Positions 8,666 to 32,400 of a stretch of 64,000 nucleotides of DNA are shown here, piece by piece. A model generated the notes under the pieces. That model searched no databases, was not told the DNA's origin, and saw nothing but the letters and a program-made list of their open reading frames with translations. Every line of letters starts with the position of its first letter. Within the stretch, counting starts at the first letter, position 1. Source of the DNA: Podarcis vaucheri (Eukaryota); NCBI GenBank assembly GCA_965113315.1, contig OZ220363.1. One strand, written 5' to 3'. The position numbers and the translations under genes were made by a program.

Positions 8666-10770
8666 AACTTAACCCAGCTTCTTCTCATAACTGGCACATC
8701 CTCAGCGAGCTATTTGAGGAACTACCTGACCCAGGAAAATTTTATGGTCATTTAAACCTTGAACTCTTTCACTAGATCAATTCTCAGCCTGTACCGGTAG
8801 AGATCAGGGTAAAAGGAATTTCCTAATAATTACTGGATTACCTCCCACTTAATAGTTATTTATATTATAAAGAGGCCTGCAGAGCCCTTCTGGTGCCACA
8901 GGGTCCCCCCGCCATTTGACATTAGACTTGAAAGAAACATTCTGTTGCACTTACTAATAGAATGTAGCATGTGCTTAGTGCTCACAGCAGTTCTCAGGTT
9001 TGCAAATGATCCCAAAAGGGATGATGACCACCTGCTTTAGTGAGAATTTTGGAAGGCAAACATGTAATGAACAGCTGATCAATGACAGTACAGAGGAGGA
9101 ATTGGGAAGCATTATGCAGAGAAAACACAGCGGGGCAGAGGAGTCTGGGTTGGGGGCCTGACCTGTTTTCTAAACACAGTGGGATAAAACTTGGCAAAGC
9201 TTTTGAAACCAGCAGAATGCCTAACATGGTCACAGAAAACAAAGATGATTTAGTTACTTATCTTGTAAAATTTATGCACCTCTTGATTATAAAAAAACAA
9301 CAACCCTCAGAGCAGTTTGAAGGCAGAGAAAAACTTGTCAAGAGGCGCCACAAACAAAAGTAATTCCCTTTCTATTCCCTGGCAGGTAACTGCGACAACA
9401 AGGTGTTGATAAACGTTAGCAAGCCACTTATAGTGAAACTCAACTGGCGAGGTTTAAGCTACAAATTCGGAGCTTGTGGAAAGGACTTTGCTGTTGGAAA
9501 CAAGAATGCTGACGCATACTGGGTTGCCCCGCTCAACACAGACGAGCGTTTGTTGGAAACCTACCGCATCTACAACTCCTATTCCGACCTGCTGCTCTAC
9601 AAAAGCCAAATAGAGAAAAGCCTTTCTCAATTTGTTGGGTTCACCTGGAACTACATCAACTGTGGGCAGGGAAGCGGAACTATTTTGTACAACGGCAGCT
9701 TCTATTACAACTGCTACAACTCCAGGAACCTGTGCAAGCTGGATGTGGCAACCAGTAAGGTCCACCGCAAGACCGTCGAAGACGCCGTGTTCAACAACTG
9801 GTACTCTTATAGCTGAATCTATTGGCAGGACTTTGATTTCTCCGGGGATGAGAATGGACTGTGGCTCATTTACTCCATGGAAAAAAGCAAGGGGAAAATA
9901 TCAATTGGGCAGCTGGATCCCAATACTCTGACAATAGTCAAGTTATAGCAAACCTCACTGTACAAGCCTAAGGCAACCAGCACCTTCATGATCTGTGGGG
10001 TGATGTATGCCTTGATGCAGGTGAGTGAACACAATGAGAAGATCTTTTACAAATATGACACTAACACAGCCACAGAAAGCTCTATGGACATCATCCTGGA
10101 AAACCTCACAGGCACACCGCAAAGCATAATGTACAACCCCAATGACCACAAGCTATACATGTACAATGATGGCTACCTGGTCAGTTATGATGTGATATTC
10201 CGACGCGTACCCCTGTTCCAAAAGAGGAGCGTGGTCAGTGTGAAGAGCCAGATACTTTTGCAATGGTCAGTAAAAACCACTTCAGCTCACAAGACTTTGC
10301 CATAGCCTGAAAGAGAAAAAAGGCCAGGCACGCACAACATTTACCTATTGGCAAATACATATTTTAAATGGTAAAAGTCTTGATTGTAAGGCCAGCAGAC
10401 AGATTCTATCTTTAAAGGGTATAATTAAACAAGCCCTTTTCTTCACAGTGGACTCAAGTGTCTACCTGTGTGAAGAGAACATGTCACAGGGTTGGCTGCT
10501 CTCACCATTGAACCTCCACTGCCTTTCCCTCGCACCAAATGATTCTGGCAGTAACAGGATTAGGGCTTTGGTGTGGAATCTGCTATAGATCATGCCACTG
10601 AGTAACTAGGAGTTCATAAACAGCAGACATATACCCTGAAATCACCTTGCGTGTGTTGTGTTTGTGTGTGTCTGTCCCCTCCGCCTAGTTATGACACCTT
10701 TTGGGCCTCTCCTCAGGTGTTAACATTTGCCATCTGGAGGACATAAGTTCCACAACACCTGAGCTTCACA

Positions 10771-10973: not shown

Positions 10974-13900
10974 TCAGGATATAAGAGCTTGCACGTTCTT
11001 GAGGGCTGCGTCCGGATCCGCCTTGTATAGCATGAAGTGGCCTTGAACTTGCGCGGCACTGATCTGATCAGAGGCAGACATGGCCTGTTTGGCAAACTCC
11101 TCGGCCGCAGCTGCTGGCTGGTCTGGGTAGAACCTCTGGAACATGCGCCCGAGCTGCCACTCTGAGCAGTATCCCACGTACTGCTTCAGGTCCACCCGGC
11201 CAGGGCGAACTAGGGCTGGATCGAGCCTGCAGGGAAAGAGAAGAAGACAAATGAGACTCAGCAAATGCTCAGGTGGGAAATCTGGTTCTCTATGCTCCTC
11301 TCACTTGGGGTATCATCTCCTTGTTCTCTCTCCAACCCCAAGAAGATACAGGGCTAGGGGAATCTGCTCTCCCCTTTATTTTTTTGAGCTACTCTCTAAA
11401 AGGCTATAAAGTAACAGTGCCTTGTAATTTAACTACACCCACGTCTTGCTGCACTCACCCATCATGCTCCTCTTTCTCCATACCTGCCAAGTTACCCATC
11501 CCCTCCTACAATCTCAGAGGAGTCTGCATGGAACCAGGAACAGTAAACAAGGACAGAACCAGATCTTCAGCTTCTGTGTTAAATGCTGCAAACCAGCATG
11601 ACCAAAGGAGCCAGAAGTCCATATGTATATATACCCCAGACCACTCCCTAGCAAGCATGACCCCAGCGTTACCCAAAGCCTTACCCAGCCAGTTTTAACT
11701 GGCTGACCCTGTCTGCTGAGCATTTGCTCTTCTACCCTGCACATGACTCCTTCAGCACCAGGCTTACATGGCTGGCAGAGTCCTGTGCTTGTGGGAGAGG
11801 ATGTGTCACAGGTCTTGGAGACTACAAGAGCCCCAAGATAAGATTCTCTTCCGTCTTCTTCTATAGTATAATCTTCTGGAACAGGAAGTGTGTCTTCATT
11901 CCTGCTGCCTTCCTCCTTTTTATACTTAAAATAGTTACCAGCTGGTCCCCAGAAAGGCAGACTTTGCCTCATAAAGACAGCACTTCCAAGGGGTGGGACA
12001 CAAACTGCCCTCCTCTGTTACTCACTGCAATCTCCTTCTTGACTGAGTTACAAGGAAGCTCATGGAGTTGCCTTGTGTGAGCTAGGGATGGACGGATCAG
12101 TTTATTTGGGGTCCATGTCCAAAGTGTTACAGGTGTTAAGTCTGCTCTGTTGCTTTTCCACTTTAAGATCTGTAAATTTTTTATTTAAAAAATCCATACA
12201 AAAATTCGTATTTAAAAATGCATTTTATTATAAATGCATATTTAAATAGTATTTATCACAGGGTATGCATCTCTAAATGCATTTCCTCCTAGAAAAATAA
12301 AAATAAAAATCTTAATGCATTTTGGGAACCAAGGACTGTATTGCAAAATTTGGAGGAGCTGAAGGATAATTGTGAATTCGTTTGGGAGATACAAATTTGG
12401 CTAGCTTGCTTGAAAATGCAGACAAAACAAAACTCTCCTCCACCCCTAGCTTGTCTTCACCTCAAAAACACCAATGGAGACATCTTAGGCACTGTGTTAC
12501 TTGAGGAATCCTTGGTCCCACCAAGGGAAGTGAACCCTTTGGATCGAACTGGCCTACCACCAAAGGGACTCCATTTGCAGGCTTCCTCCCAGCCACTGAG
12601 CGGTGAAGTAGGCTGATTTGCTGGAATACTGGTCCTGTGTGTGTGTGTGTGTGTGTGTGTGTAGCTGTTTCCCTGGCAAAACAACAGTCCTGCTCCTGTC
12701 TGCGTTTGGGCTACCGAGGGATTCAAAAACCTGTCTCAGGGGATACCTAGCTTCTCCTCGTGGCATGCTTTGGCACCGAATGTGAGAGGGTTGAGTGGAA
12801 TGGGTTGGGCGAGGTTATCATGGTGTTAGTGTCCTCACCACATGCCGGCTGGTGGTTTCAATGCGTCACCAGTGTGGGACTTCATGTTGTGAGGGGAAGG
12901 TGATGAAGGAATTTCTCTATGGGACTGTCAGTTGTTGCTACATTGTTTCCTCCCCCTCCCCCTTTCCCCTTCCTACTTCTGTTACAACAGTTTTGATTTA
13001 GCTGCTGGAGGAACGTAGAATCCTAAACCACTGTAGACTCCAGCCTATCAGCCACTACCTTCCTTGGGTGCCATTAAATGATCCTTCCCAAGCAAACTGT
13101 TATCTTCTGCAGCTAACAACCTCTCTATCTGCCCCATTTTCTGTGCAACGCTTCTGACCTGTCCACATGATTGGTGGTCATGAATACAATCCTTGCTTCG
13201 GAGGAAGCCACACCATCCAACGCGTTGAGAAGGCCACTGAAAGTCAGGCGTCCCATGCCTTGGTATGCGCTGGGGTCTGGAGGGAAACACAGCGGCACAG
13301 AGACAACTCAGAGGGAGACACTATAGGTACAGTTGTGACCAAGGGCTGCCCAAATTCTGTCTTGGTTTATAGCCTTCCAGGGGAAGGGCAACAATCCCAC
13401 TGTTGTGGTCTTATGTCACAGTAGTACCAGCTTTATGTTCCCTGCCTGATGTGCAGTGGCTTGCGAAATGTTCCTGACACACTGCTGTCCAAATAGATAC
13501 ATGAAGGGATCAGAGAAAATCGTGCCACCTGGTGGCAAAATGCAAGTCGATAGAAAGCAGGACAATAAACAGTCAGGATCCTATGTCCAAAGAAGGCTGG
13601 CAAAAAGAAGTGCCTCTAGGATCTCTGCTGGCGAATCTCTTCCACAGTGCAAAAGCTGTAAACTTGTCCCCAAGCGCCTGTCTTGTTTCAAGTCTCTCTT
13701 TGTATATGGATAACTGAATTGGAATAGGTGTCACATTAAAGCCTGCAGATAATTATTTATCATTATATTTATTCAATCTATTGGTAGCTCGCTACGTAAA
13801 AAGTATTGAAGTAACTCACAAAGTTTTAAAGACATAAAGCAAAAACAAAAACAAAAAAACCACTCAATAAGAAGAAAAGAGAGCAATACGTTGCATTTAA

Positions 13901-16900
13901 AAAGAAACTGTACCAAAATCCAGAGAACAGACACAGTAAAGAAGCAGGGGGGAAAACTTGGCAGCAAAGCCATCCAGCAAATCATCACCACCATCTGTCA
14001 AATACCTGAGTTAAGTTTTTACCTGGTGCCAAAAGAATTTTAATGATAGCCCCAAGAGGACCCCACTGTGAAGAGCATTCCACAAGTGGGGAGCCCTGAC
14101 TGGAACACCCTCTTCCTTGTCACCACACTCCAGACCTCCCTCAGAGTGGACACCAGTAGAGGATCAAAAAATGAAGGGTCTGGGTAGGTTTGTAAGGGAA
14201 GACATTTTCCAAAAGACATTGGTGTCCTGAGTCATTGACCCCTGTTTGTCAGTACCAGGTCACCAACCCGAATCCCATTGCAAAGTGCAGCTTGGAGGAA
14301 GGAGCTACTATTCAGCTCTCATTCCCCCCACTCTGAATGAACAATTAGCTTGGGAAAGTTGCTGCAGTGCAGCACTTAATCAGGATGCCTCCACAGAGTT
14401 ACAACACAGGGGTGATGAACGCTTGGTCCCAGCTCAGTCAGAGGCAGCAGAAAAGGGCAGCCTGGAACAAAAGAGTGGGGAGGCGCCATCTGCCTGTCAC
14501 TCACTTTCGGCAGCAAGATCCCGGCTGACGAAAGCAGCATCCACGTCCTCCAGGAGGATGATGCTCTGTTGAGGAGCTACGCTCAGGAGGTGGTTAAGAC
14601 GATCATCAGAGAGGCTGCGGTCGCTCAGGCTCAGGAGACAGATGCTGTACTCAAGTTCTCCAGCAAGGGCTGTGCTGTGATAGACAGAGAACAATGTTTC
14701 CGCTGAAGAAAACAATGACAACACCTTGTGCAAAGCTAAGCAGGGTAAGCTGTAGGGGAGTGATTCCTGACCAGGAGCTACACAAGTGCCCAGGGAGGTA
14801 CCCTCAGAGACTGTATCCATGGGCAAATCCTTTGAGAAAAGGGGGTTTTTTGGAAGGAAAGCTGAGGACATGGTACTCACATGAAACTGCTCTTTCCACA
14901 ACCTGGGGGCCCGTACAGCAGGTATCCTCTCCGATAGGGGATTCCTACAGACAAAGAGGCTAGTCAAAAGGCAGAAAACGCAGCCTATTCCAACTTCTTT
15001 TGAAATCTGAGCTACCATCTCACACCCGAGAATAAGAATGAGCTGATCGATGATGCCTTGAGCTCACCCCATAGTGGCCAATTCCAGTTGCTGAGAAAGA
15101 AATATATTGCACAGGGCCCTGACAGAGTACCCAATATCCTGCCACCCTAAAGGTTTAGCACTACTTTAACCCACTTGGCAAAGAGTTGATACAAAGTATT
15201 GTGGCAAATGCCAGAAACTTAGTAAACATTTGGTTTATCAGTACTTGGCTGTGCAGAGACGAGCCAGGACAGTCTCTCTCGTAGGAAAGTAAGGGATAGT
15301 TCCTAATTCTCAAGGCCTGGGACTATGCAGGGGCTGTTGTAGAGACAGCAATGAGGTTAGAAGAAGCTTCCCACTACACTCATGTCAGAGATGAGTTGCG
15401 AGTGCTAGTGGAGATAAGAGTCCGGGAATCCAGCCATATTTACAAGATTTATTGCTTCTTTCGTGCTATGTACAATCAGCTTTGAAAGTCCGTTCCGGTC
15501 ATGGCAAGTCAGTTGCCTCGACTAAAGTTGCTTTCGGTTTTCCCCAGCATAACCACCTCCTAAGCCCAACCCCCCCTCCTTCCTCTCTTACGAGAGTGGC
15601 TTGGCCCTGGAAGTGCCTTCCCCCTCTCAGATTCATTGCCTCCTGACAGCCTGTCGTCTCCTTCCTCGTCCGAGGAAGAACAGCTACTAATTAATGGAGG
15701 TTTGTCTCAATACGTTTCCATTCTCTCCCCCTTCTCTGCCTCCCATTCCCTGACAACTCATAAGAAGAGAGAGGTCCCGCTGCCCTCATAAGAACAGAGA
15801 GACATCAGCACAGTTGGGAGTCCAAAGCAGGAAGAAGGCGCAGGCAGGTTGGAAATGACAGGGATGCAGAAGGCAGCAGAGATGCCTTTGGGCACAATAG
15901 CAGAGGACATTGAGAATGATAATCTGGGCTAAATAATGGGATATGCTGGCTCTGTAAGTGGCATCCCACCTGCCTTAATTTAGCTCATAAAGGAAAAGCT
16001 CAGGTTGTGAGGGTATCTGAATGTCGCTCCCTGAAAAGTAAACTCACCTCGATCAATGTACCACTTGGGGTTACCAGTGAACTCTTGCACATCCCGCACA
16101 ATTCTCTCGGACACTCCTTTCTCAAGCACTACAGAGGTGAGCGGACGCCGACGTCGTGGGAAACCAAATGGCCGCCATTCAGCTCCCATGGCTGTGTACA
16201 TGACCGTCTTTCCTTCTTGCTGCCTCAGAGCCAATTCTTTGGCTGCAGAGAAAGGAACAAAGCTGAGGAAAGGGAGCTAACTGCACATCTGGATACAGGT
16301 GGGAAGGAGGAAGAGGGAAATCGCCTGTCTGCTAAATATAACAAAGGAAGGATGCAAGGAAGCATCACCAAAGAGAATGTGTCAGTTTGGAGGGTAGCCC
16401 CAGCTCTAAGTAGGGGTACTTAAGGAACTGGAGTTCTGTGAATTCTGATGCAGAGTGATATAATTTGTACCTCCTGGAATCAGGTGCAGAACAGAACATA
16501 ACTAGCCATCAGACTTTGGCCTTCTCTAAATTTTGAAATACAGTTTTCAGTTCAAAAAATGCCCAACGGCCTGAAAAATGCATAATTTGGAATAAAATAC
16601 ATTTAGAAGTGCATACAATGAGCTACAATTGTAGCTACTTCATAAAAATATATTTAGGTATGTATTTAAACATGATTTTTTCATATTTATTTTTTTAAAT
16701 TGTAGATTAATGCAGAAACAGGATGGAATGGACTTACTAAAGAACACATGTAAAACAAACCTGGGTCCAGAAATAGACTGATCTATTCATCCCTAGCGCC
16801 AACATCATCATTAAATGTATTACCCATCCTTGCCAGCCTACAACCAAGGAGAGCTATTGTACCTTCCTGCAGGATGTTGAAGAAAACTTCTCGGTTGCTA

Positions 16901-17469
16901 CCGATTGCTGTGAAGGTGACAGATTCCCAAGGGGTGCCCGTATGCAGGTCAATCATTTGTTTCTCCCGGTTCCGTTCAATACGGATCCACTTCCTTTTAT
17001 ACCTGGAAGCAGAGCAGGGAACATGTGAACAGGAACTGGTGGTGGGGAGACAACTGGACGAGCAAGCATGCAATATTCATGACCACCACTTCCTTATTAG
17101 CCCTGCAATACTTCTGTCCATCCCAAAGACATTCCATGGCCTCACTTACCAAATGAAATGGTTCCCAGGGCTGGGGATAAAGTCAAACTTGGTACTGATA
17201 CGGCCACTCTCATGCTGCAGGTATGAGGTCTCCACGCTCAGGTGCTGGGTGTGCTTTGCATGGTGAGAGATCCAGCTCAGCAGCCAGTGGTAACTCTTGT
17301 CCTTGCTTGGCACCTCTAGGGTGATCATACAATGCCGCCTGAAAGCCACCAAGCCAAGCTGTGCCCCTTTACGGGCCAGGGCCAAGGCTGTACCTACACC
17401 CACCAGGCCAAAGCCTGCTCCGAAGTATGGATTGTCCTTCAGGGCCGAGACAAAGTCAGAAAAGGGCAT
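10974..17469 (-). CDS. BCS1L: Mitochondrial AAA chaperone BCS1L. Coding exons 17150-17469, 16863-17002, 16048-16242, 14881-14944, 14505-14674, 13159-13276, 10974-11226 (1260 nt, 419 aa)
   Basis: [27 protein letters not shown]-terminus, Walker A GPPGCGKS, Walker [19 protein letters not shown]. All introns are GT-AG with consistent phases, and the length equals human BCS1L (419 aa). Non-coding first exon probably about 19717-19770 (donor gtgagg), spliced to the acceptor at 17526. Confidence 0.98.
12636..12662. repeat. (TG)n microsatellite
   Basis: Seen directly. Confidence 0.95.
13755..14240 (-). mobile_element. L2 LINE 3' fragment (decayed)
   Basis: (TTA/TTTA) tail and gttttacctggtgcc...agagcattccacaag...ggagcc, similar to the reverse complement of the L2 at 38390-38480. 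Confidence 0.5.
15383..15755 (-). mobile_element. Solo LTR (Gypsy-type, 373 bp) in a BCS1L intron
   Basis: TGTCAG...CTGACA termini; perfect 5-bp TSD ACTCA (15378-15382 / 15756-15760); minus-strand AATAAA at 15448-15453. Confidence 0.85.
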
Positions 17470-17648
17470 TGTTGTGGGTGGGGAAATAACTCCAGTGCTA
17501 AAGAGCCATTCCCAGCAGCATTTCTTCTAAACACCATAACAACACATGGAGAGGAAGAGAAAAAAAACAACAAATTAATTATGAAGTTATGGGTGGCAAG
17601 TATATTGGTTACCAGAAGACAAGCTTTATTGACAAATTCTCTTTAACC

Positions 17649-17781
17649 CAGGTGTGGGGAACTTTGACCCTCCAGATGTTGCTGATCTACAACACCTTCC
17701 CTGGCCATTGGCTATGCTTGCTGGGGCTGATGGGAGTTGGAGTTCAGCAACATCTGGAGAGCCAAAGTCTCACCACACCTG
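17649..17781. mobile_element. Short palindromic hAT MITE (cagatgttgctg...actacaactccc family)
   Basis: TIR CAGGTGTGG / CCACACCTG; 8-bp TSD ctttaacc/ctttagcc. Related copies at about 37101-37397, 40670-40790, 44178-44297, 50300-50490, 52040-52155, 56857-56971 and 62221-62347. Confidence 0.75.
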
Positions 17782-18435
17782 CTTTAGCCTCTTTCATGCT
17801 ACCTTATTTTAGCAAAATAAATACCCTGGCAGATCCCTCCCCACTGGAAAACCAGAATACAAGTAATTATGCATACATACTCACAAATTCAGCTTCCTTC
17901 TCTATAGTAGTTTGAAAGATTGCAAAGCAAGGCTGCCACCATTTTGGCTTGTGTAAAGAAAACTGGATATTCCCTAGCTTGCTTTTGTTGGTGTAATCTG
18001 GAAAAATTGGTGAAATTGCACTCCGTGCTTGGGCCGTGTCTTCAGCAGCCCATTCCCCATTCTGTTAAGTTAGCACACCGGCTTCACTGGGTGGCTTAAA
18101 ATAGTCGAAGGCTAAATGCCTGGAGCGTCTCTCATTCATCTTCTCTTTCTCTAATGTGTGTATGTGCAAAGATGGGTATAAAGCCAAGGCTGCAGCAGCA
18201 TTGGCAGGAGTATGAGGTATTCACTGAGAAGAGGCTTTGCTCAGTGCAAGGTACCAGCAGAGAAGCTGAAGGTTACATGCTGTGTGGTTCCGTATAGCAT
18301 GCTGAGCTTGTTAGGATTCTTGCTCTGTGCTTGCAGTCATGGGATTGTTTTATGTTACATGATGGTGTATGTTTTCATTCCACATTGTGGGAAGTGGTGG
18401 AGACAGAGCTAGCGTGGTAAAGTTTTACTTCTAAT

Positions 18436-18676
18436 TAGTCAAACCTCGGTTGTCGAACATAATCCATTCTGGAAGACCGTTCAACTTCCGAAACGTTCGA
18501 TAACCGAGGTGTGGCTTCTGATTGGTTGCAAGAGCTTCTTGCACTTGAGCAGAAGCCGTGTCAGATGTTTGGGTTCCGAAAAACGTTCAAAAACCAGAGC
18601 ATTTAATTTCAGGTTTTCAGCATTTGGAAGGTGAAACGTATCATAACGGAAGTGTTTGGGAACTGAGATTTGACTG
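18436..18676. mobile_element. Tc1/mariner (Tigger/pogo-like) MITE
   Basis: Degenerate TIRs agtcaaacctcggtt / aactgagatttgactg; internal ggaagaccgttc..cttccgaaacgttc shared with the copy at 43876-44130. Confidence 0.65.
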
Positions 18677-19549
18677 TGTAGTAGAATAGTTCATGATGTA
18701 CCAGCATCTCTTAAAAGTTTATGTAGCTAGGGTGTTTATACTTATCTTAAACACAATAAACACTTTATACTTTGAATTGAACTGAATGGGGAAGAAGTCT
18801 TCTTAACCAGGAATTCTATCTGCTTTCTCCACATCATGCATAATTTTATATAACATGGTCCCCTTTACCTGTTCTTTTCCTGAACTAACGTTCCCCCCCA
18901 CCATTGTAGTTCTTTATCATAGGGAAGTTGCTCTATTTGGACTGCCCTTTTCTAGCTCAAATGCTTAGGCATGCCCAATGAAGTTTTTGATTTCTTGGGC
19001 AGACCCCCTCCCCATGCTACCACAATCAAATTTTGAAAGGTCACTCAAAAGTAGCTTGTTGTGTGACCCAGAAAGCTAGCTATCGGTATTTGAGAAACAT
19101 AGCTCAGAAACTAGTTACTGCGCCAAATACATGTGCACCAAATAGTAGATCAACCATGTTTTGCAGCTCATAATCACTTTGAATTTCTTCTGTTTGTGAG
19201 TTAGCATTTTGTCTGCTCTGTGGAGCTTGATGTTTATTTCCAATAGCATTTGTGGAAAGTAGAAACTGAAATGATGCTCTCTGAACAATTTCATTACTTG
19301 TGTGTGTGTCTTTTTGGAAAGTCAGCCACAGCCCAAATGTTGTTTGCTGGTCTGGAAACATTTGCCTACCACGACTAGAGATAGGAAGATTTATAATACT
19401 TTTCTCCACACTTTTAAAAGGGGTGCGATGCTGAGGAGGAAACCTCTCTATGGGGTTAAGTCCCATTGAGTCCAATGGAACTGACTCCCGGCTGAAATGA
19501 TGCAGGGTCTCAGGCTCAATTTCCTGTCTCGAAAGGAGAATCGTCTGAA

Positions 19550-20480
19550 CCCGCCACCCTTTTCTCTTGCAGCACTTAATCGCCCCCATAGCATCAAGAG
19601 GGTCCTCTCCTGCGTGCCCCCTTCCACACGCCCGGCATAAAGGAACAACACCCGCAGACATGGACTATGGAACACGCTCTCCACGCATTAAAGTTCGCCT
19701 CCCCAATAGACCTCACCTCCAGATAGCGCCTCTCTTGCCTTGCTTTTCTCTATGGTTCTTTTGACCGGAAACAATTCTTTTCTCTACTCTATCGTCCCCT
19801 TAGATATAGAGATATGAAAATGTATAAAGTTATAAATGTATATTGGCATAAATATCTTTTGATGATGATTCTCTACAAATGCATAATGGCAGTCGTTTTG
19901 ACATCTTCGGGGTGAATCCTCTGTATATCTTGCAGTAGGAACGAGAATTCGATCCTAAATCAGAAGTAACGATAAGGGTAGTGTGCAACTCTTATCTTTT
20001 TCTATCTCTACGATAACCTCCAGCTTCAAAAGGCGGAAGTTGAACCGAAGTCAGCATTTCCTGTGCTTATATGTGACAGCAGAGCGGACGCGTTTTCCGG
20101 CACTCTATGGTCCCTGAGGGAGCGTTACGTGTCTGTATTTTTTCCTTCGCGGTTGCGCCATCCCAACCATTTGCCTGCCTGCCTGGGTTCTGGACTTGCG
20201 AGGTGAAGATTAACCCCTTTAAAGCGGTTACGGCAATCCCTGGAAGTCGCTCTGGAAAGCTTCCCTTTATGGTGCCGCCTCTGGTCCTGGAACGTCAGTC
20301 AGCAGTTACCATAGAGTTGCGGGGTGGGAGCGGGCTCTGGGCGGCACAAAGGGGGGAGGGGGGACGCTCTTCCTTCGGTGGGGGGGTGAGTGAAAGGAAG
20401 AGCTTTTGTTTTGTTTTAATTGGGGAGGGGCTGTGGGGCTCCTCGTTGGCCTAGGAAGGCGGTGGGCAAGCAAGCCAAAG
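19550..20480. promoter_or_regulatory. Bidirectional CpG-rich promoter of BCS1L (-) and ZNF142 (+)
   Basis: CpG enrichment; ETS/GABP-type motifs CCGGAA 19765-19770, GGCGGAAGT 20032-20040 and TTCCGG 20095-20100; divergent splice donors at 19716 (-) and 20386 (+); head-to-head arrangement as in human. Confidence 0.75.
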
Positions 20481-21104
20481 AGGGAAAGGGAAGGAGGTGC
20501 CCAGTGGTGAGTTGACTTGGGTGGGCCCTCCAAGACTCTCACGGCATAGCTGTCAACTTTTCCCTTTTCTTGCAAGGAATCCTATTCGGAATAAGGGAAC
20601 TTCCCTTAAAAAAAGGGAAACGTTGGCAACTATGTCTCACGGGGTGCAAGGAAGGCAAAAGGTGCTCCCAGAGACTCATTGGCCCCCTAATGCTGTTGTA
20701 TGTGTGCTTTGTAATGGGGTTGGGGCGGGCAGGTCATGGCCTGAAAAGGAAGGGGCCCCCACAGGGCTAAGCTGAGCCCTGGAGTTGGTTACTGGCCATT
20801 CTGCCTCAGGCATCCTCGTTCATCCTTTCCCTTAAAATATCCGTGATTTTTCTCTCTTTCTCTTCCCTTGCACTTCAGAGAGCAGTAAAGATGGCCCAAG
20901 CCTGGCACTGGGAGCCTGAACGGCTGCAGAAGAAGCCCACCAGGAGAAGGAGAGGAAACCGGGTGTGTAAGTTCAGCCTCATTGTCTTAAAGCCCACTTC
21001 ACCACCCAGTCAGGTGGCCAGATTCCTGCAGGGCTGCTTTACCCCAACTAGTTGGGATCACTTGCCAACTGCTATCCAAAAACATGCAGGAGAGGGGATA
21101 TGGT

Positions 21105-21420
21105 AAGATGTGTATAAAACAATGCATGGTGTAGAGAAGGCAAACAGAACCATGCTTTTCCCCTTCCCTCCTAATACTGGAACCTGGGGTCATCTAATGG
21201 AGCTGAAGGATAGGAGATTCAGGATATACAGAAGGAAGGACTTCTTTATACAGTGTGTAATTAAGGTATGGAACTCACCGCCACAATATGTAGTGGTAGC
21301 CAATAACTCGTGTTACTTTAAGAAGGGAGCTTGACAAATTCACAGACAATAAGGCTATTAGTGGCTTCTAGGTGTGATGGCTGTATTTTGCCTCTAGGTT
21401 CAGGGATATCATGTTTCTAA
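21105..21420 (+). mobile_element. CR1 LINE 3' fragment
   Basis: Peptide VYKTMHGVEK...TWGHLMEL...RFR..RRKDFFIQCVIKVWNSPPQYVV...FKKG is the typical CR1 ORF2 C-terminus. Confidence 0.85.
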
Positions 21421-22725
21421 AGGGGGAACAATAGTGGGCGAAAGTTTGGCAGAAGCTGACAGAACTTTTAATTCTAAATGGGCAGTGCCCTTCATTTTTT
21501 CTGGAAGTTTTGCTAATCGTAGAAATAACTATATCATCAAGCATACATGGCACTTGCATATCTAGCACGCTGTTACTTATGTTAATTTGGTCTGGAATCT
21601 TTCCTCTAAACAGTCTTGGGCATGATTATCTACAGATGCATGCCAAAATGATTAGGTAACATATTTGTGAGTTTTACTGTGTGCCAGTAGGCAGTTCTGT
21701 GTGCTGTTCTTACAGGAAGCAAATTCAAACCCCCAAAATGTATGTCCCAGTGAGTGTCTAATCCTGGAAATTAGCTTTTCATCCAGTTACAACTGCCCAT
21801 CTCTGAGCCAGGTTTATCTGGAATAAATGCGGTGGAGTTCAGCTCTATGTGAAACTATTACCAAAGTGTTTAGACTCCAAGTTTTGAAGAAAGAATTCTG
21901 GAGCGAGTGTTCCTATTGATTAAAGTACTGGGCCCTACACAGGAAAAATTAACATACCTTTACCAGCTAGAGTGAAAAAGAACAGCTTGGATTTATATGT
22001 ATAATCTTGTACAGGAAGAAGTCTGCAGGATTGTAGTGTTGGGCTCTGCTGTGTTGCTAAAGCAGAACATTCTGCATATTGGTTCTGGGATGTAAAATGT
22101 TTTGCAGTAATGGAGATGCTTTTAACTGAGCTAATAGAAGACAGTAGACTGTGCTGGCCCGTGGAAGTAGACTGGCAAAACCTCTTCAGGCTGTGAGGGT
22201 GGGCTGCAAATAACCCAATAAATTGCTGTCTTACCTAATGGTAGAGCAAGCCCCATTATGTTTTGACAGCCTAGATGCAGCGATAAAGACTATTAAAGTG
22301 TTTTCAGCTCTAAATTCTTCAGCAGTTTGCCTTAAGCCCTCCATACGGTTGGGTTTTAGTCTATTCCAGAGTTGATTGTAAAAACCACTGACATAGCTGC
22401 ATAAACTTTCATCTTTCCTCTGTGCTTCTCTTCTCCAGGAAAGTAAATCTGTGAATATCCTGAATTTTCCCATCCTGAACCAAATACTGTCCTGTTGAGC
22501 TTTCTACTTAAGCAGACATAGTTGCCAACTCTAATAGCTGCCTAATACTAACAAAGCTAACAGTTACTATTGGGCATTACAAAACCACCCCATACTCATT
22601 TATTTGAAAAACTTAATCCTTGGTTGCTTCTCTTCAGGACAGCAATGGTACCATTTTCTTGCTATGTTTTTAACAGGAGCTGTACCCCACTTTATGTCAT
22701 GGTGCAAGGCTACACTGAGGAGTGA

Positions 22726-23430
22726 ATGACAATGAGCACAGGAGCAGTTACAACGGAACCTGTGGGAGGAGACAAGATGAACGCACTATGCCAGGAGCTC
22801 TTGCTACCCGGCTCAACAGATGCAGGAAATGAGAACAGCCATGGCATCTCCAGTGAGAACTTAGTGGTGGGACAAAGCTTGCTTTTAACAGAGGCTTCTG
22901 TGGTAGGAACAGAAACTGCTGGTGTTGAAATATTTGTAGAAGCCGTGACTAGCAGCATGTCCCTCAGCAATCCTGGCAGCACTACAGGTATGTTGTGCCC
23001 TGATAGGTCTTCGTAACCATGTAAGAATGAACCACTTTGTCACTGTCATCTTTTACTGTGAGTGGTTTCTGTCATGTAGCATTTGTATTGTAAAGGAGCA
23101 GCAGAAAGAAGCCTTAGGATCTTAGGTCTGGTACAAAAGGCCAAGAGACCTGTGAAAGAGTAGCCTGGCTTTTCTGCACCTGATGCTGTATTCTGTATTT
23201 TAACAGCACAAGTGCTGAGGAGCATGAGGGGTATAGGAGATGGGAGAGTGCAGTGCGGTGCCTTGGAGCACGTCAAGAGCATAGGATTTGCAGGGTACCA
23301 TATTTACAGCAAAGTAGGGTGGGACGTTTAATGAAGGAGAAGACACCACTTACAGGGATGTTTAGGTGGTGGCATGTGGGAAGGGGGCTTAGGTGTTGAG
23401 GAGTTGGAAGCTTACAAGGGGGTGATTGGC

Positions 23431-23486
<56 letters not shown>

Positions 23487-26400
23487 TTATTATTTATATC
23501 CCGCCCATCTGGCTGAGTTTCCTCAGCCACTCTGGGCGGCTCCCAATCAAGTGTTAAAAACCGTACAGCATTAAATATTAAAAACTTCCTGTAATGTATA
23601 TGGGTTGCTCGTGTGTAAGTTGCCGCCTCTCCAGGCTTTGTTGCCTTGCTAAACCTTTCAGTCTGGGCAGCCCTTCACTTCGTGTCTGCCTCAGTCGCTA
23701 GCAGAATCCGTCAGTGGACGTTTCTTAAATCTTTTCCAACATAAAAGTTGTTTGACACCCAGTCTCCTCCTACTCTCTCTGTGCGGAAGTCTTCTGCGCA
23801 GGGTGGGCGTGGGTAGCGGAGGACCCGTGCTCTCCCCGCTGGTGTCCGGTGAAGAGTCCTGGAGCCCTCTCGCCGATTCCCCCATCAGCCCCTCTATATC
23901 CCTGGTGTTGCGCTGATTTGCTTCCCCATCTGCGGAGCTGCCTCTCTCCCTGCTGGGCCCTTCTCCAGCATCATTTGAGAGCCTTCCCTCCGCCTCTAGC
24001 TCCGATGTCAGTTCCCTGACACTTCCCTAAACAGGGCTGCCTTCAGATGTCTTTTAAAGATCCTTCAGATGTCTTTTGATCTTTTAAAGGAATTTAAGAG
24101 GCAAGATTCATATACGTGGTACACACTGAGACAGGGACACGTTTGAAAATTAAGCACTTGTCCTACCATTCAAATCAAAACTGGTGATCTTTTCCTGTGA
24201 AAATGTTTGGGTGTGGTTCTAAACACCTGATTCATGGAGAGTCGTCCCCCCCCCCCCCGCTCCAACCCATTTGAATTGAATCCTGTGTTCTGATAACAGT
24301 TCTTATAGATGACTCTCCACCTATATGCTGATGGCTGTGACAGAGCTTTGGAGAATCCTTGCTTGTAAGCTGACACAATTTTTAGTAATTTTTGCCTTGG
24401 ATGAGATTTGAACTGAAGCATGAGGTAGGTGTGTGTGGATTTTTTTCTACCTTATTCTCAGCTGTTTTTTAAATATCTCCTCACAGAGGTCTTGGTCAAA
24501 GTTGTGGAGCTCTATTTCTGCGAACGGTGTGGGCAGAGCTTCTCTGACCCCGGCCTGCTTTCCCAGCATCAGTGCATTGAGCTTACCAGAGGACAACTTG
24601 CAAGCATCCCTCAACTCCAAGAGCTACCACTGGGCCTTACAAGCCAGAGCCTGGCTGTCTCTGGAGAGCAGTCGGCAGTCCATGAGGCACAAGCGCAGGG
24701 CTTGCTGGATAGAAGCAGGCAGGACCCTGAATTCTGTACCGATCCCCTCTTGTGCCCTGTTTGCCAGGTGGAGTTTGCCTTGCCCACTGAGCTGAAGGAG
24801 CATTTCAGGGACCACCAAAAACCTACGGGTCCCCAAGTCTGCTTTGAGGAAGGCTGTCATTTCAACTCGGAGGATCGCAAGCAACTCCGGGGGCACCTGC
24901 GGCACGTCCACCAGGTGTGCCCAGTCACCTGCACCTACCGTGGCTGCTCGCTCTTGTTCCGAAGCCGAGAGGACATGGACCTTCACCGCAGAAGCCACTT
25001 CCCGTTTCACTGTAGGCTCTGTGACTTCATCAGCGGCAACACCAAGCAGTTTGGGCAGCACCGACACAGCCATCTGCAGGAGGCCACACAGCAGGATGTG
25101 GAGGCAGCGCTGGAGACAGGAGCAGTCGCTGAGAGCACTGAGCACAGCTTCACTGCCATAGTGGGGAAGCGGCTCGCCCATCATCTGCTTCTAACATCAG
25201 GTACTTGGGGCTGAGGAAGAGACTAGGGTGGGCAGAAGGGGGGGTTCTTTGTAGTGATGCCAGCCACCTACTTCTTAAAACCCCCACTGGATCCTAGGGG
25301 TCTCTTAACTCACTTTTGTGACAACTTCCACTTCACTTAGAGACAATGCCATAGGCGGAGGTAAAGGGGTGAAGCTCCATTAGTCAGCCGGCTTTGTGGA
25401 ATGATATTATTTGTGGATGTGGAAAATTATAGCATGAAAAGATGGTGGTAGATTCTGAATGGTGAACCATAGCTGGGAAAAGGATTTGAAATGGTGGGAA
25501 AGTTGGGGAAGTGCAGTAGCCGAGAGCAGCTCTCCCTTTGAAAATGCCCAAAGTTTAATCCTCCTCTCTGTCAAACCATGAAGGTCTTATTTCCACTTTT
25601 TGTGTGTCTTTTAACCCTCTTTTCTAGTTCCTGTTCTACTTCCCTTTGCCTGGTTCTCAATATGCATTTATTTGCATGTTATCATTTGCTCACCTCAAGC
25701 CTTTTCTCTATAAAAAAATGGAGTCCCTGGTTTATATTTCATTTTCTTTCCAAGGAAGGGAAGAACCACTGAGCAAGGCTGAGAATTGCTTGGAAGTTCA
25801 GAGTGGTTGGGATGTGACTGAAATGGAGCCTGGCCTGGGGGCACATGTTGGTAGCAGTCATGTGCCTCCTGAGGACTCAGGACCCAAGGAAGACACAGGG
25901 GATGAATTTCAGGAGGAGGAGGAGGAGGAGGAGGAGGAGGTGGTGGTGGAGAAGGAGAGCTTTGAGAAGAAAGCATCTTCTAAAAGAACAAAGGCTCAGC
26001 TGATCAAAGGTAGAGACTTGCATTCATTTGCGAGCAGTACAGTTTCTGGCATTTCTTAGAAAAGCTTTGACAGACAGCAAATGCACAGGCATATTACAGC
26101 ATGCCCTATATTTGAAGAGGGTCTCCCTGCCTGAACTGGTTGTTTTCTTTCCCGAGTTCAGAGGCAAACTACTTCACACATTAGTTCCCACTTCTGCTTG
26201 GAAATCTATTTGTGATGCTTTCTTTTCTTTGGAGTGGGGTGGAGCATTGAATGCAATGGCTATTCTCCAGTGGGTGCTAACTGATTCCCAATTATCCCTA
26301 AATCTCCTGAGCTACTAGAAGCTCTTAAGCATAGGGTGGGGTTTTTAGATAAATTTTATATCTGTATAAAAAAACCCTCTACTGTTATAGGCCATTGCAG

Positions 26401-29400
26401 TAATTTTTTATTGTAGGGTAGAGAGAACATGGGAAGAGATTGCAGTTTGGAGCAACGGTTATTGCTAGAGATGAGAGGCAGGCAAAATAGACTTCTGGAG
26501 CATGACCAAAGGCCCTTTTATTCATTCCTCTGCACTTAAGACATGCTCCTCTCATTGCAGAAGGTGCGGTTGAGGACTCCAAATACCTGTTCAAGACCCA
26601 CATGTGTCCCGAGTGCAAGCGTTGCTTCAAGAAGCGGACTCACCTGGTGGAACACCTTCACCTCCACTTCCCTGACCCCAGGCTGCAGTGCCCAAACTGC
26701 CAGAAGTTCTTCACCAGCAAGAGCAAGCTGAAGATCCACATGATGCGTGAGAATGGGGAGAAGGCCCACCGCTGCCCACTCTGCCACTACAGCTCTGTAG
26801 AGAAGAATGCCCTCAACAGGCACATGGCCAGCATGCACGAGGACATCTCCAACTTCTACTCGGACGTCTACTCCTGTCCTGTGTGCAAGGAGACGTTCAA
26901 GCTCAGCCATGCCCTCAAGGAGCACCTGAAGACCCACAAGGCAGAGCCCAAGCAGCTGAGCTGCTTCCAGGCCGACTGCAGCTACAGCACCGAGGACCGC
27001 AAGGACTTCCTGCGGCACGTCAGGGAGGCACACTACATCAAAGCAGTAGAGTGCAAGTACTATGCCTGCTCCCTTCTCTTCCCCACCGCGGAGGTCATGG
27101 AAGCGCATCGCAAGACGCACTACGCCTTCCACTGCCAGCAGTGCGACTTCATCTGCTCCAACAAGCACGTCTTCCGCAAGCATAAGAAGCAAGGCCACCC
27201 GGGGAGCGAGCAGCTCCAGTGCAGCTTCTGCCCCTTTGCCACATTCAACTCTGTGGAATTCCACGACCACGTGGGCAAGATGCATGCCAGTGAGAAGATC
27301 CACAAGTGCACCGAGTGCAACTTTGCCACGGCGCACAAGAGGGTCCTCATCCGCCACATGCTGCTCCACACAGGCAAGTTTGCTTCCCTGCATGGGGACT
27401 CCTAGGGAAGCTCTGGAACGTGTCTGCTTGTTTGCTTGTCCCCTTTGTCTCCTGTTGTCTCATAGTGCTCTGAACGGCAGGTCTGTAGTCCTAATTTTCC
27501 TACCTGCTCCTACTTCTTTAGTTCGACCCTTTTCCACTATGAGGTCAGTTGCCTTATTTGTATACTGCAGGACTAGGGAGACCTAGGTTAATATTCCTAC
27601 TCTCGGAAGCTTTCACTGGGTTTTTCTTGGGTCAGTCACATATTCTCAGACTTAACTTGCCTCACAGGGTTTTTGTCGGGAGAGGTGGGAGCTGAGGTGG
27701 GAACTACAGGTGCCACCTCGTGCTCCTTAGAGGAAAGGTGTGAAATAATGAAATTCATACCTTCTAAACTTGAAAGGAAGCTCCTTCCAGACCTCTACTT
27801 TGATCATTGTGATGAAGGGAGACTTTAGATATAGATTGAGCACCCACAGGTTAGACTTGTTTTTCTTGTACAAAATCCTGGCCTTCTGGGGCCCCCTTCA
27901 TGCAGGTTCTGCCCCCACACCTCTTGTTGAAAGACCTAGATTCTGTACTGGAAAGGGATTGAGATTCTTTAGTAAAATTTAGGCAGATTTGCCAGATTTC
28001 CGAACTTTAGTTTGCCAACAGAATTTCAGTTCTGGTTGTAGAGTTCAACAGTCTTCAGTATAAAGTTAGATTCCCTGACTAGACTTTTGGGGTTTGCAAT
28101 TTTTGGCAGCCCATTCCCCATTTTAGTTGCAATTTCCCATCAGCCTTTCCTTTTCCCAGCTAGCAGCCTTGGATACAGCTAGGTGAAGGTGCTTAGGGCA
28201 CTGTCGCATTTACCTGCCCACCCCAACCTCCCAGCAAGCCCCTCCAGAGCAGGAAGGTCTGGCAAGCAAAGGGCAGGAATGTGGAGAAGGACTTTCTAGT
28301 TTGTGGCCCTGCATGGCAAAGGCACTCGTCATGGTGATGCAGCGGCCAAGCAGCCCTAGCCTTTCTCCCCTCTTTGGAGTGAGAAAGAAGCAGGGATTGC
28401 TGCTTAGCTGATGGGATCATTGCCACTCACCTCTACACTTGCACTGTGGGAAGGCATGCTTGTTGCTTGTTAACGCTAACTTGAGGGCAGTGCCACACAT
28501 GGTTGAAACTTGGGCGGCATCCATACACAGTGACAGTATAGCAATACAGTGGTACCTCGGGTTACATACGCTTCAGGTTACATACGCTTCAGGTTACAGA
28601 CTCCACTAACCCAGAAATACTACCTCGGGTTAAGAACTTTGCTTCAGGATGAGAACAGAAATTGTGCTCCGGCAGCACAGCGGCAGCGGGAGGCCCCATT
28701 AGCTAAAGTGGTGCTTCAGGTTAAGAACAGTTTCAGGTTAAGAATGGACCTCTGGAACGAATTAAGTACTTAACCCGAGGTACCACTGTATGCTGTGGGA
28801 AGGAAGTGCTACTGTTTATTTTGCGGGGGGTTTTTTGTGGGGCGGGGCAAAGTAGGGCCTCGTTTTAAATTGAAAATCTGCTGCCCTCAAGGGGCACTGC
28901 GGGCAGGACTGTCAATCCACAGCTTCCAGTTTGCTCTGTGACTTTAGGAGAGAAGCCTCACAAATGCCAGCTGTGTGACTTCACTTGCCGAGACGTGAGC
29001 TACCTTTCCAAGCATATGCTGACCCACTCTGACGACAAGAACTACATGTGCACTGAGTGTGGCTATGTGACAAAGTGGAAGCACTACCTGAACGTTCACA
29101 TGCGGAAGCACACGGGAGATCTGAGGTACTGAGAGACCCCCTTCCCATTCCCCTGGCGTGTGTCCTGTATCAGGAAGTAATCTGTATGCAGAGCTGAGGC
29201 CTTTCTCCTTCCACGGCCTTGACCCACTCTTGTTTTGTGTGCAACCAGGTATCAGTGTAACCAGTGTTCCTACCGCTGCCACCGGGCCGACCAGCTGAGC
29301 AGCCACAAGCTGCGCCACCAGGGCAAGTCCTTGATCTGCGAGGTGTGTGGCTTTGCTTGCAAGCGCAAGTATGAGCTACAGAAGCACATGCAGGCGAAAC

Positions 29401-32400
29401 ACTCCCAGAACTACCAGTCTCCCGTCTTCCAGTGTCAGTACTGCAGCTACCAGACCAAATACAAGCAAGCCCTGCTCAACCACGAGAACTGCAAGCACAC
29501 CAAGCAGAGGGAGTTCCGTTGCGCCCTGTGCCCTTACCGCACCTTCAGCAATACCAGCCTTTTCTTCCACAAGCGCAAGGTCCACGGCTATGTGCCCGGT
29601 GACAAGGGCTGGCAGGAGAACTATGCCAGCAAGGAGTTGGAGGTCACCTCGACGGAGGTGCTGCTCAGTTACAACCTGGCCATGACCCTCCATGCGGAGC
29701 CCAGTCCCTCCCTCCCCAGGAGGCATGACAAAACCAAGGCCCTTGTTTCAGAGGTCCAGGAGGAGGATGGCCCCCAGGAGACTTTCATCATGTCTCTCTT
29801 TGGGAGTGAAGGCAATGCTGAGACCGGGAGAGAGGAAGTGGTGGGAGAGCAAGACCATAGTAAGACAGATGCAGCCCCTTCAGAGGAACTCTCAACCAAA
29901 GCCTTTCCGAAGGGCTCAGAGGAATCAGGCAGTATTGGGAAGCCCCTTCCGACTTGCACACTGCATCTGGAGACCCTGTGCAGCTCTGACCCAGAGCAGC
30001 TGGTTGAGGAGATGCCCGCAGCAATGCCAGACAGTGGGACGGCCCAGAATTGTAAGGAGGTGGAATCGGCCTATGAAGCATTAGGCTCCAAGGACTCCCT
30101 CCTCCTGGAGGACAGCGAATCTGCTCTCGACGACATCCCTGACTTTGAGGAGGAGGCAGAGGTCCATGAGGATAGAGAGATGGAGCTGGAGAAAGGTGCT
30201 GGGTCAAGGACTGTTGAAGAGAACAAAAAAGATGCTCAGCAGGATCTGGGGGACAGTAAGGGTGATGGGCGGGACTCTGAACTTCAGCAGGCACCACCCA
30301 GCCCTGAGCAGGGTTTGGGGTGCAAAGAACCCAGTATACAGGAAGCTTGGCCAAAGGGGTCAAAGCAAGATTCTCTTCGACCTGTTACTGGCCACGAGAC
30401 TCTCCTTGCCCCAGAAGATATGCTTCCTCCCTCTGAAGAAGGCTCCGATTCAGAATCTGTGCTGAAAGCTCTAAGGCGGCAGGACAAGGAGCAAGCGGAA
30501 ACCCTTGTCCTGGAAGGCAGGGTGCAGATGTTGGTGGTTCAGTCCGAGAGCCGCGTCTTCAAGTGCGAGAAATGCTCTTACATCACCAGGAAGGAGAAGT
30601 CAATGCTGGTGCACTGCAAAGCTGGCTGTCAGGGTAGGAAATGCCCCTTGGTGTGCCAGGAGTGTGGGGCCATTTTCAAGCAGCAGAGAGGCCTGAATAC
30701 CCACCTCCTTAAGAAATGTCCGGCCCTCGTGAAGAAGACTGGCGGGAAAGCAGCCTGCTTAGACCAGCCTGCTGCAGTACAGCCCAATGACAAGAGCCTG
30801 GAAATAGCGGAGGCTAAGAAGAATGGGACAGGAGCCCCGGACGAGGAGGTGAGCAAGCTTCAAAAGGCTTCCTGGGATGCAGAACTGAGGCCTGTGGATG
30901 CTGAGTCTACAGCCGCTGTCCTTCCCAACACACAGTCCTTGGCCATCAGTTTGCAAGAGAAGCCATCTCAGGATGTCCCTGAAACCATGGTAGAAGAACA
31001 GTTGCCAGAAGCTACCGCTGACACAGCTAGCAATCCCTTGGAGAAATACTATGTGGAGCAGAGCAAGTTCCACTGCAAAGCCTGCTCTTTTGCCTGTTCA
31101 CGGGTGTCCACCATCCGCTCCCACGTAGAGGACGGCTGCCGTGGCTCAGAGCAGTTCTGCTGCCCGTTGTGCTCTAAGCCGTTCCGTTCCAAGAGGGCCG
31201 TTAAGATCCACCAGTTGGAGGGGCACGTTGAAGCTCATCCCACCCAGCTGCTGGAAAGGACCAAGCGCACGGCGGACTCAGAGGGTGGAGATCAGCAAGC
31301 AAATGGACAAATCATCTGTAAAGATATGGGTCGGGCCAATGAGCCAGTGGGAGCAAGCTGTCCCCGCCCTGTGGCCACACACAAGAAGCGGCACTTCTCC
31401 TGCCCCTCCTGCCCCTTCACGTGCCACCAGGAGCGTGCCCTGAAGACCCACAAGAAGCGGGGCTGCCTGAAGCTGGGCGAGTTCCGCTGCACGCTGTGCC
31501 CTTTCACTTCCAAGGCTGCGGCAGCGCTCCGACTGCACCGCAAACTCCACCGCAAGTACTACAGCAGTCGGCCGCAGCTGGCCTGCCGCCAGTGCGACTT
31601 CACCTGCAAGCAGGTGCGCTGCCTGCGCCAGCACGTGCGCATCAAGCACGAGGGGGAGAAGCCCCACAAGTGCCCTTACTGTGAGTTCAGCACCACCCGG
31701 CGCTACCGGCTGGATGCCCACCAGTCCTTGCACACGGGCGTGGGCCGCATCGCCTGCCCCACCTGTGGCCAGACTTTCGGCACCAACTCCAAGCTGCGTA
31801 TCCACCGCCTGCGGGTCCACGAGAAGAAGCCCACCCACTTCTGCCCGCTCTGCGACTACAGCGGCTACATCCAGAACGACATCACCCGCCACGTCAACAG
31901 CTGCCACCAGGGGGAGCTGAACTTTGCCTGCGCCCACTGCCAAGCCCGCTTCAGCTCTGAGACGGCCCTCAAGCAGCATGCCCTGCGCCAGCACGAGGAG
32001 AAGGTCTCCTACGCCTGCCCTCGCTGCGCCTTCGTCTGCCACAGCGAGGCCACCCTCAAGTGCCACGTCCAGAAGCAGCACCCGCACCTGGAGTGCGCCA
32101 CCTGCAAGGCCACGCTGGCCACCCGCGAGGAGCTGGAGGAGCACAAGAAGCTGCACTTCAGCCACCGCTGCGACATCTGCAGCTACGCGGCCAAGGAGCG
32201 GCAGCAGCTGGTGAGCCACTACTTGGAGGCCCATGAGCCCCCTGCGGCCAGCGAGAGGTTGCTCAGGTGCTCCTTCTGCGACTTCAGTTGCTGCCACCAG
32301 CTGGTCCTGGACCACCACGTGAAGGGCCACGGTGGCACCCGCATCTACAAGTGCTCCGACTGCGAGTACGCCACCAAGAACAAGCAGAAGATCACGTGGC

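Follow-up and report, generated by a model that had tools for sequence, protein, structure and literature searches.

The window analysed here, a stretch of 64,000 nucleotides from the wall lizard Podarcis vaucheri (contig OZ220363.1), contains two solo long terminal repeats (LTRs), LTR-A and LTR-B, whose U3 regions carry protein-like sequence that closes on a similar short motif. This raises the question of what such a peptide belongs to, for which the initial annotation had put forward two answers, a separate LTR-encoded protein or the tail of a Pol polyprotein that reads into the LTR. Comparison with copies of the same elements elsewhere in the genome indicates that the LTR-coded peptide is very probably a Pol tail, maintained by selection at the protein level.

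The LTR-coded peptide in the window

Both LTRs lie on the minus strand, open with TGTCAGGGAA, as had been annotated, and close with ACA, giving TG...CA ends. LTR-A (15383..15755, 373 bp) is bounded by the 5-bp target-site duplication TGAGT (15756..15760, with the other copy at 15378-15382) and LTR-B (23590..24021, 432 bp) by the duplication GGAAG (24022..24026 and 23585-23589). LTR-A is a member of a smaller, older group, A, with 42 matches at 73-100% identity, and LTR-B of a young, high-copy group, B, for which 40 scored matches, among 3246 first-look candidates, are 98-100% identical. Local alignment of the two LTRs at the DNA level matches just the first 10 bases, in agreement with the earlier statement that the remainder does not obviously align.

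In LTR-B the second frame is open for 109 codons (23694..24020, minus strand) up to a TGA at 23691-23693, precisely as first described. The encoded peptide, very probably the C-terminus of Pol/integrase, comprises an acidic, Ser-rich spacer followed by a basic-LLCW-basic end, with the Cys-Trp codons at 23736..23741. LTR-A contains a broken remnant of the group A version of this tail (15502..15754, minus strand), with the Cys-Trp codons at 15544..15549 and the family stop codon at 15499-15501. The two lesions that the initial annotation had corrected for are located at 15707-15709, where a stop codon interrupts the frame, and at 15570-15576, where a G run shifts it, and because of them the acidic part and the sequence VGLRRWLCW appear in different frames. 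In L032, the nearest genomic copy of LTR-A (93%), an open stretch of 84 codons extends through this motif.

The Pol frame continues through U3

In copies elsewhere in the genome the integrase, the chromodomain, an acidic tail, the polypurine tract and the whole of U3 lie in one frame. Two of these, L068 and L119, each have a single stop-free frame in which Pfam identifies the integrase zinc finger, rve, SH3 and Chromo domains, followed by the LTR-coded peptide, and it is the Pol-tail answer that these copies bear out. The parts are arranged in the order chromodomain, two acidic FxGF motifs, a tract-coded GxxVD, an acidic spacer and the basic-hydrophobic-x-C-W-basic end (the xCW end). The Pol frame spans U3 and terminates at, or at most about 30 nt past, the predicted transcript start site described below.

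At 72 chromodomain ends (loci L063-L162) the start of the LTR is in phase in 54, out of phase in 14 and was not found in 4, and 32 of the 72 are open through the Cys-Trp. Since these loci had been picked partly by protein likeness to the tail, LTRs were also sampled by DNA likeness alone. In this second sample the motif is in the Pol phase in 113 of 132 copies (29/29 in group B, from whose counts L024 was excluded as it starts at base 3, 19/30 in A, 21/25 in E, 23/24 in C and 21/24 in D), with different modal positions in each group (281, 206, 287, 185 and 188, respectively). Frame 1 reaches the motif without a stop in 1 of the 132 copies, and frame 3 does so in 12. Across the groups the length of U3 ranges from 179 to 287 nt, and the motif stays in the Pol phase throughout.

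These observations bear directly on the other answer, in which U3 would be a separate accessory gene like those for HIV Nef or MMTV Sag, expressed from its own or a spliced mRNA. The length of the open frame in U3 and an internal Met in LTR-B speak for such a gene, but the reading frame runs on unbroken from integrase, and the predicted transcript start is downstream of U3, near the end of the frame. A separate LTR-encoded protein is extremely improbable, and this part of the initial proposal is not supported.

Element class and priming

Both LTRs derive from related self-priming Ty3/gypsy chromoviruses. Group A copies with two LTRs encode gag, reverse transcriptase, RNase H, integrase, SH3 and chromodomain in the Ty3/gypsy order (Pfam searches of the frames of L062 being among the basis for this), and the chromodomain, PF00385, scores above cut-off at the integrase C-terminus in L061, L068, L119 and L112. 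The TG...CA ends of the LTRs, the 5-bp target-site duplications and a polypurine tract ahead of the 3' LTR are also as in Ty3/gypsy elements, so that the Gypsy-like squamate lineage first suggested was correct as to class. Pfam has no family for the LTR-B peptide.

Following the 5' LTR is a stretch that can pair with a 10-11-mer from within the LTR of the same element, and from group to group the two sequences change together. Complementarity is perfect in L062, L165, L172 and L174 and has one mismatch in L061, L166 and L171; it is missing in L170, whose 5' LTR is shortened, and 6 of the 14 loci yielded no LTR pair. By analogy with Tf1, the 11-mer is predicted to mark the 5' end of the transcript. 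In LTR-A the 11-mer complementary to the primer-binding site of the group A copy L061 lies at 15513..15523, which would place the U3/R border here, and in LTR-B that complementary to the primer-binding sites of the group B copies L165 and L166 lies at 23705..23715, both on the minus strand. With no pol upstream of them, and with U3 upstream of the predicted start site, the two solo LTRs of the window likely make no peptide. A primer site complementary to the element's own LTR is the self-priming arrangement described for the Tf1/sushi group (PMC6317226).

Selection on the tail

The ratio of non-synonymous to synonymous substitution rates (dN/dS) was calculated pairwise by the Nei-Gojobori method on real open copies, leaving out L160 for its frameshifted stretch. 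For the LTR-coded part it is 0.47 in group B, 0.39 in A, 0.36 in C and 0.44 in D, and of 9 internal gaps in the DNA alignments 8 have a length divisible by three. When all six frames were compared the Pol frame gave the lowest value both in group A (0.39, confidence interval (CI) 0.25-0.58, against 0.58-1.76 for the other five) and in group B (0.48, CI 0.35-0.66, against 0.53-1.07), although these intervals are optimistic because the pairs share ancestry. The next-lowest frame is in each case the antisense frame that shares third positions (0.58 in A and 0.53 in B), as would be expected. Stop counts from the six-frame comparison are circular, the copies having been selected as open. Selection on the motif, as first postulated, is supported by these values, which for the LTR-coded part stay well below 1 and reach their minimum in the Pol frame.

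In six group B copies the ratio varies along the protein. It is 0.15 for the integrase core, 0.16 for the chromodomain, 0.09 and 0.07 for the first and second FxGF motifs (TIM1 and TIM2) and 0.21 for the LTR-coded end, with the spacers at 0.54-0.58 (0.56 for the LTR spacer). The core of the Cys-Trp motif has a dN/dS of 0.08 (CI 0.02-0.23, likewise optimistic). In group B the synonymous rate itself, dS, peaks in this core, at 0.81 as against 0.25-0.40 elsewhere in the LTR.

The xCW motif

The conserved core of the motif is a large hydrophobic residue-x-C-W with basic flanks. Of the LCW motif as originally defined, the Cys-Trp and the basic flanks are kept but the Leu is not: the position ahead of the Cys is filled by L, A, I or F in the 24 tails of groups A-D, and group E has H, P or R there. 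In all 24 of these A-D tails the Cys and Trp are invariant, the Cys codon being TGC in 20 and TGT in 4, while position -5 is L, F, V or I, using all four first bases, and position -2 is W or L. The run from the Trp to the stop had been given as exactly 14 codons followed by TGA; this is true of groups A and B but not in general, as it varies from 6 to 20 codons across 34 tails. In all 34 the motif window is strongly basic, with a charge of +5 to +11, around an aromatic core. The consensus for docking to protein phosphatase 1 (PP1) through RVxF is [RK]x(0,1)[VI]x[FW], and this identity for the end of the tail was rejected, the pattern being present in 2 of the 34 tails. A second conserved LTR-coded motif is seen at about codons 14-25, where YRE-P-x-hydrophobic-ISS is followed by Ser and acidic residues. 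It is present in groups A, C and D, in L135 and in P0135, and is missing from most of group B.

The invariance of the Cys-Trp codons could also have a cause at the level of DNA. In such an explanation the frame would be open mainly for a simple basic nuclear localisation signal (NLS), or would merely be tolerated, and the Cys-Trp would reflect an overlapping core-promoter element, TGYTGG, about 30 nt before the transcript start. U3 must serve as a promoter too, TGYTGG sits 26-33 nt ahead of the self-primer 11-mer in groups A-E, and five of its six bases do not vary at all among the 24 tails examined. A DNA element does not, however, fit with the motif core having the highest dS in the LTR, with hydrophobic residues at -5 and -2 being kept through unlike codons, or with the Pol phase of the motif holding over the whole range of U3 lengths, and we regard this explanation as unlikely.

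Distribution of the tail

The xCW end is also present in proteins P0004 and P0005 of Podarcis muralis (UniRef), in P0002 (Logan) and in a more distant ENA protein, P0135. A search of 1.84 billion proteins gave 6 hits, and one of these, P0133, was dropped as a repetitive, unrelated protein. The tail of P0135 contains a tract-like GGLEEGVDV and had no match in this genome, nor was a close relative of it found. A profile of the tail matched nothing among the PDB sequences at E values up to 10, and the ESM Atlas gave no usable match for the xCW end. Within this genome the xCW end is carried by a further group, E (L179, ending ...RKRKGFFHCWKKRK), which has an identity of about 45-49% to groups A-D over the integrase and chromodomain (integrase alone, about 46%). 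In a tree of 29 integrases, calculated with no named reference elements, with L105 left out as it has no open stretch and with a root for drawing only, the elements with xCW tails form one clade (100/98) that includes group E, and the FxGF-bearing clade is nested within it (100/100).

Outside the xCW clade the situation varies. In L177 and L191 the frame stops at the chromodomain. In group F, a young group, the frame also enters the LTR, ending ...PRRSARLKAR, in which RRSARL is identical to the first six residues of the nucleosome-binding consensus of the HMGN proteins, RRSARLSA (PMC13347269). The group F loci are L233:5299-5645, L180, L188-L190, L192, L193, L197, L198, L205 and L206, with open frames of up to 1564 residues and an intact Y-W-Y chromodomain. 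In a frog chromovirus protein, P0011, and in the ENA protein P0007 the frame similarly continues past a GGG-rich, tract-like stretch, with neither FxGF nor xCW, and for this reason read-through may be common in vertebrate chromoviruses. Most internal-sequence copies of the elements studied here are on a single 41-Mb contig of the P. vaucheri genome, C41, which is possibly a W-like repeat sink. The GC content of the flanks is 0.440-0.456 in all five groups, a figure that is uninformative as it has no genome control.

FxGF motifs and the chromodomain

Between the chromodomain and the polypurine tract a motif consisting of F, an acidic linker and FxGF occurs twice in 13 of 14 tails and once in the remaining tail. 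The linkers are mostly of 8-9 residues, with at least 4 D/E, and any match to the pattern was produced by 0.15-0.95% of residue shuffles. They are a match for the sequences through which JPO2, PogZ and MLL1 bind LEDGF, taken from solved-structure constructs, and profile alignment to those of JPO2 and MLL1 is in register, with E values of 0.004-0.02. PogZ is a transposase-derived host protein. Two genes with a LEDGF domain are present in the genome. The TND-interacting motif (TIM) is defined as an obligate short hydrophobic helix, an acidic linker of 8-16 residues and an optional FxGF, the FxGF being essential for the partners of LEDGF and HRP2 (PMC9987994), and the same requirement has been shown for JIL-1 in the fly (preprint 10.1101/624023). 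In the ESM Atlas the TIM region scored no higher than 0.80.

AlphaFold predicts a folded chromodomain and a disordered tail, with pLDDT mostly below 50, in which a four-residue helix is placed right after the Cys-Trp. The third aromatic residue of the methyl-lysine cage is missing in all the FxGF-bearing chromodomains shown and the first in most of them, and the Y-W-Y cage is kept in the chromodomains of group F, P0007 and P0011. As only a single branch is involved, loss of the cage together with gain of the FxGF motifs is one event and does not constitute a correlation.

A possible function for the tail

The Pol frame running via the polypurine tract through all of U3 would have U3 encode the last 70-115 residues of integrase. 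The copy of U3 in the 3' LTR would be translated as part of Pol, and the tail would be retained on integrase after proteolysis. The basic ends could then act as an NLS and the x-C-W linker could bind a host factor, by analogy with the bipartite NLS and targeting domain of Ty1. The pair of FxGF motifs, for its part, would engage the TND/IBD of LEDGF/p75 or HRP2 and in this way bias integration to H3K36me3 chromatin, a form of tethering that plausibly replaces methyl-lysine reading by a chromodomain with no third cage aromatic.

The disordered tail is probably an arm for nuclear import or chromatin targeting. That its FxGF motifs bind LEDGF or HRP2 is a prediction that we put at slightly better than even. 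The HMGN-like motif that group F has in the corresponding position lends support to a chromatin role for such tails in general. The explanation as a whole, a Pol tail through U3 serving as an import or targeting arm, is in our judgement probably correct. It is more tentative, and somewhat short of an even chance, that this squamate chromovirus lineage exchanged methyl-lysine reading for mimicry of LEDGF/HRP2 ligands, converging with its tandem JPO2-like FxGF motifs on the lentiviral cofactor, and that U3 acts as an evolvable cassette for targeting peptides, xCW in one clade and HMGN-like in another.

Two other roles for the basic end can be considered. The first, raised as a possibility in the initial annotation, is that the basic-x-C-W-basic sequence is an S-palmitoylated, amphipathic membrane anchor that places Pol or particles at membranes for assembly or for passage from cell to cell. 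The context of the Cys may resemble that of S-acylation sites, it being invariant and beside aromatic and aliphatic residues in a positively charged window. This end belongs, however, to integrase and not to Gag or Env, the other motifs of the tail resemble ligands of nuclear chromatin factors, and the clade outside holds an HMGN-like motif at the equivalent place, all of which make an anchor distinctly unlikely. The second is that the tail binds the RNA or cDNA of the element within the particle, serving as a chaperone or helping with packaging while the Trp stacks on bases. While the basic window and aromatic core found in every tail would suit such a role, it would leave both the invariant Cys and the FxGF pair unexplained, and Gag already has a zinc-knuckle-like segment, so that this must be considered quite improbable.

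Several observations weigh against an import or targeting arm as set out above. Among the junction copies, the G run of the tract throws the tail out of phase in 8 of 21 from group B and in 15 of 26 from group F; these frameshifts may be slips of assembly or of reverse transcription, but copies with no in-frame tail are still common. The search pattern for the FxGF motifs was composed after the tails had been seen and the 14 tails are kin, the hhalign probabilities of the TIM matches are only 2-9%, and the AlphaFold model of the free chain has, at low confidence, no helix before the FxGF motifs, although the hydrophobic pattern itself fits. Group E has the xCW end with no FxGF motifs. A classical bipartite NLS has two basic clusters 10-12 residues apart, and the bipartite pattern matches just 21 of 34 tails and the monopartite pattern 25. 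In groups A-E the predicted transcript start follows the Cys codon at a distance of 26-33 nt, so that the motif may be overlapped by a promoter element. Lastly, changes to the TGYTGG codons are seen in 11 of the 25 copies of group E, mostly from one related cluster on contig C18. At this site (G000:C18:7070000-7512000) there are 11 group E LTR copies (L216-L219, L222, L224-L228 and L230), most of which have no Cys, and as all 11 share one flank, an LTR-bearing segment has been amplified here in tandem.

If the proposed function is correct, these lizard elements would represent a retrotransposon that exploits the docking surface of LEDGF/HRP2 by means of FxGF motifs, and a further host partner would be indicated by the xCW peptide. 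It would also follow that in this genome thousands of solo LTRs, seemingly non-coding, have a protein-shaped sequence, and that the evolution and the dating of LTRs here are constrained by coding as well as by promoter function. The literature found contains little on integration targeting in vertebrate Ty3/gypsy elements.

Genomic setting of the two LTRs

LTR-A lies within an intron of a BCS1-family ATPase gene (11001-17526, minus strand), in the same orientation as the gene. It contains an AATAAA polyadenylation signal at 15448..15453 on that strand and could cause premature polyadenylation of the BCS1-family transcript. LTR-B lies between the coding start of this gene and a long C2H2 zinc-finger gene on the plus strand (24429-34791). 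From human synteny, the two genes are probably BCS1L and ZNF142. The window also includes an olfactomedin-domain exon (9364-9816) and exons at 46495-51617 that presumably belong to a phospholipase C-like gene. A dispersed short element with internal inverted repeats, resembling a miniature inverted-repeat transposable element or a short interspersed element, is present in several copies (17644-17787, 50354-50492, 56855-56973 and others).

Comparison with known systems

The precedents first offered for a coding LTR were HIV nef and MMTV sag, whose coding sequences overlap the U3 of the 3' LTR. As examples of overlap these stand, but both are separate accessory genes whereas the lizard frame is the end of pol, and the plant CRM chromoviruses are closer. 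In CRM group A and in some of the Bingo elements of beet (Bingo1-4/7) the polyprotein frame likewise enters the 3' LTR, the LTR-coded part, with its CR motif, being a proposed targeting domain (PMC3059260, PMC3605345). The CR motif of CRM-A replaces the chromodomain, and the primer site is for tRNA-Met, in a plant host. In contrast, the lizard elements retain a chromodomain upstream of the tract, have self-complementary priming and a vertebrate host, and their motif is unrelated in sequence.

In element structure the closest likeness is to the Tf1/sushi group (Sushi-ichi, Amn-ichi/ni/san and Tf1; PMC6317226, PMC3601003), which shares the Ty3/gypsy order, the C-terminal chromodomain, the primer site complementary to the LTR and an LTR start that fits TGTYANR. 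What sets the lizard elements apart is that their chromodomain is followed by a tail of about 170-220 residues that bears FxGF motifs and has its xCW end coded by the LTR; no such tail is described in the available text of those two papers. Sushi LTRs are modelled in PMC3601003, the main text of which does not use the terms 'ORF' or 'reading frame'.

The FxGF motifs resemble the TIMs of JPO2, MLL1, PogZ and IWS1 (PMC9987994; constructs P0025-P0027 and P0033) in having a hydrophobic residue and F, an acidic Ser/Thr linker of 8-9 residues and FxGF, and their tandem pairing is as in JPO2. The lizard motifs, which are candidates from their sequence, differ in lying on the integrase of a mobile element; viral mimicry, in the text of PMC9987994 available, concerns lentiviral integrases only. 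Searches of the open-access literature showed no account of such a tail, nor of a retrotransposon integrase bearing FxGF motifs.

The integrase of Ty1 (PMC7459421) similarly ends in a disordered region in which two basic clusters flank a short conserved linker, the site in Ty1 of the AC40 targeting domain. Ty1 differs in being a Copia element with a linker of 29 residues and no likeness in sequence, and in having a partner that has been shown experimentally. Pol read-through into the 3' LTR is known from the plant CRM elements, and what appears to be new here is the vertebrate motif set, with the LTR-coded xCW end, the FxGF pair upstream of it and, in an outside clade, the HMGN-like RRSARL.

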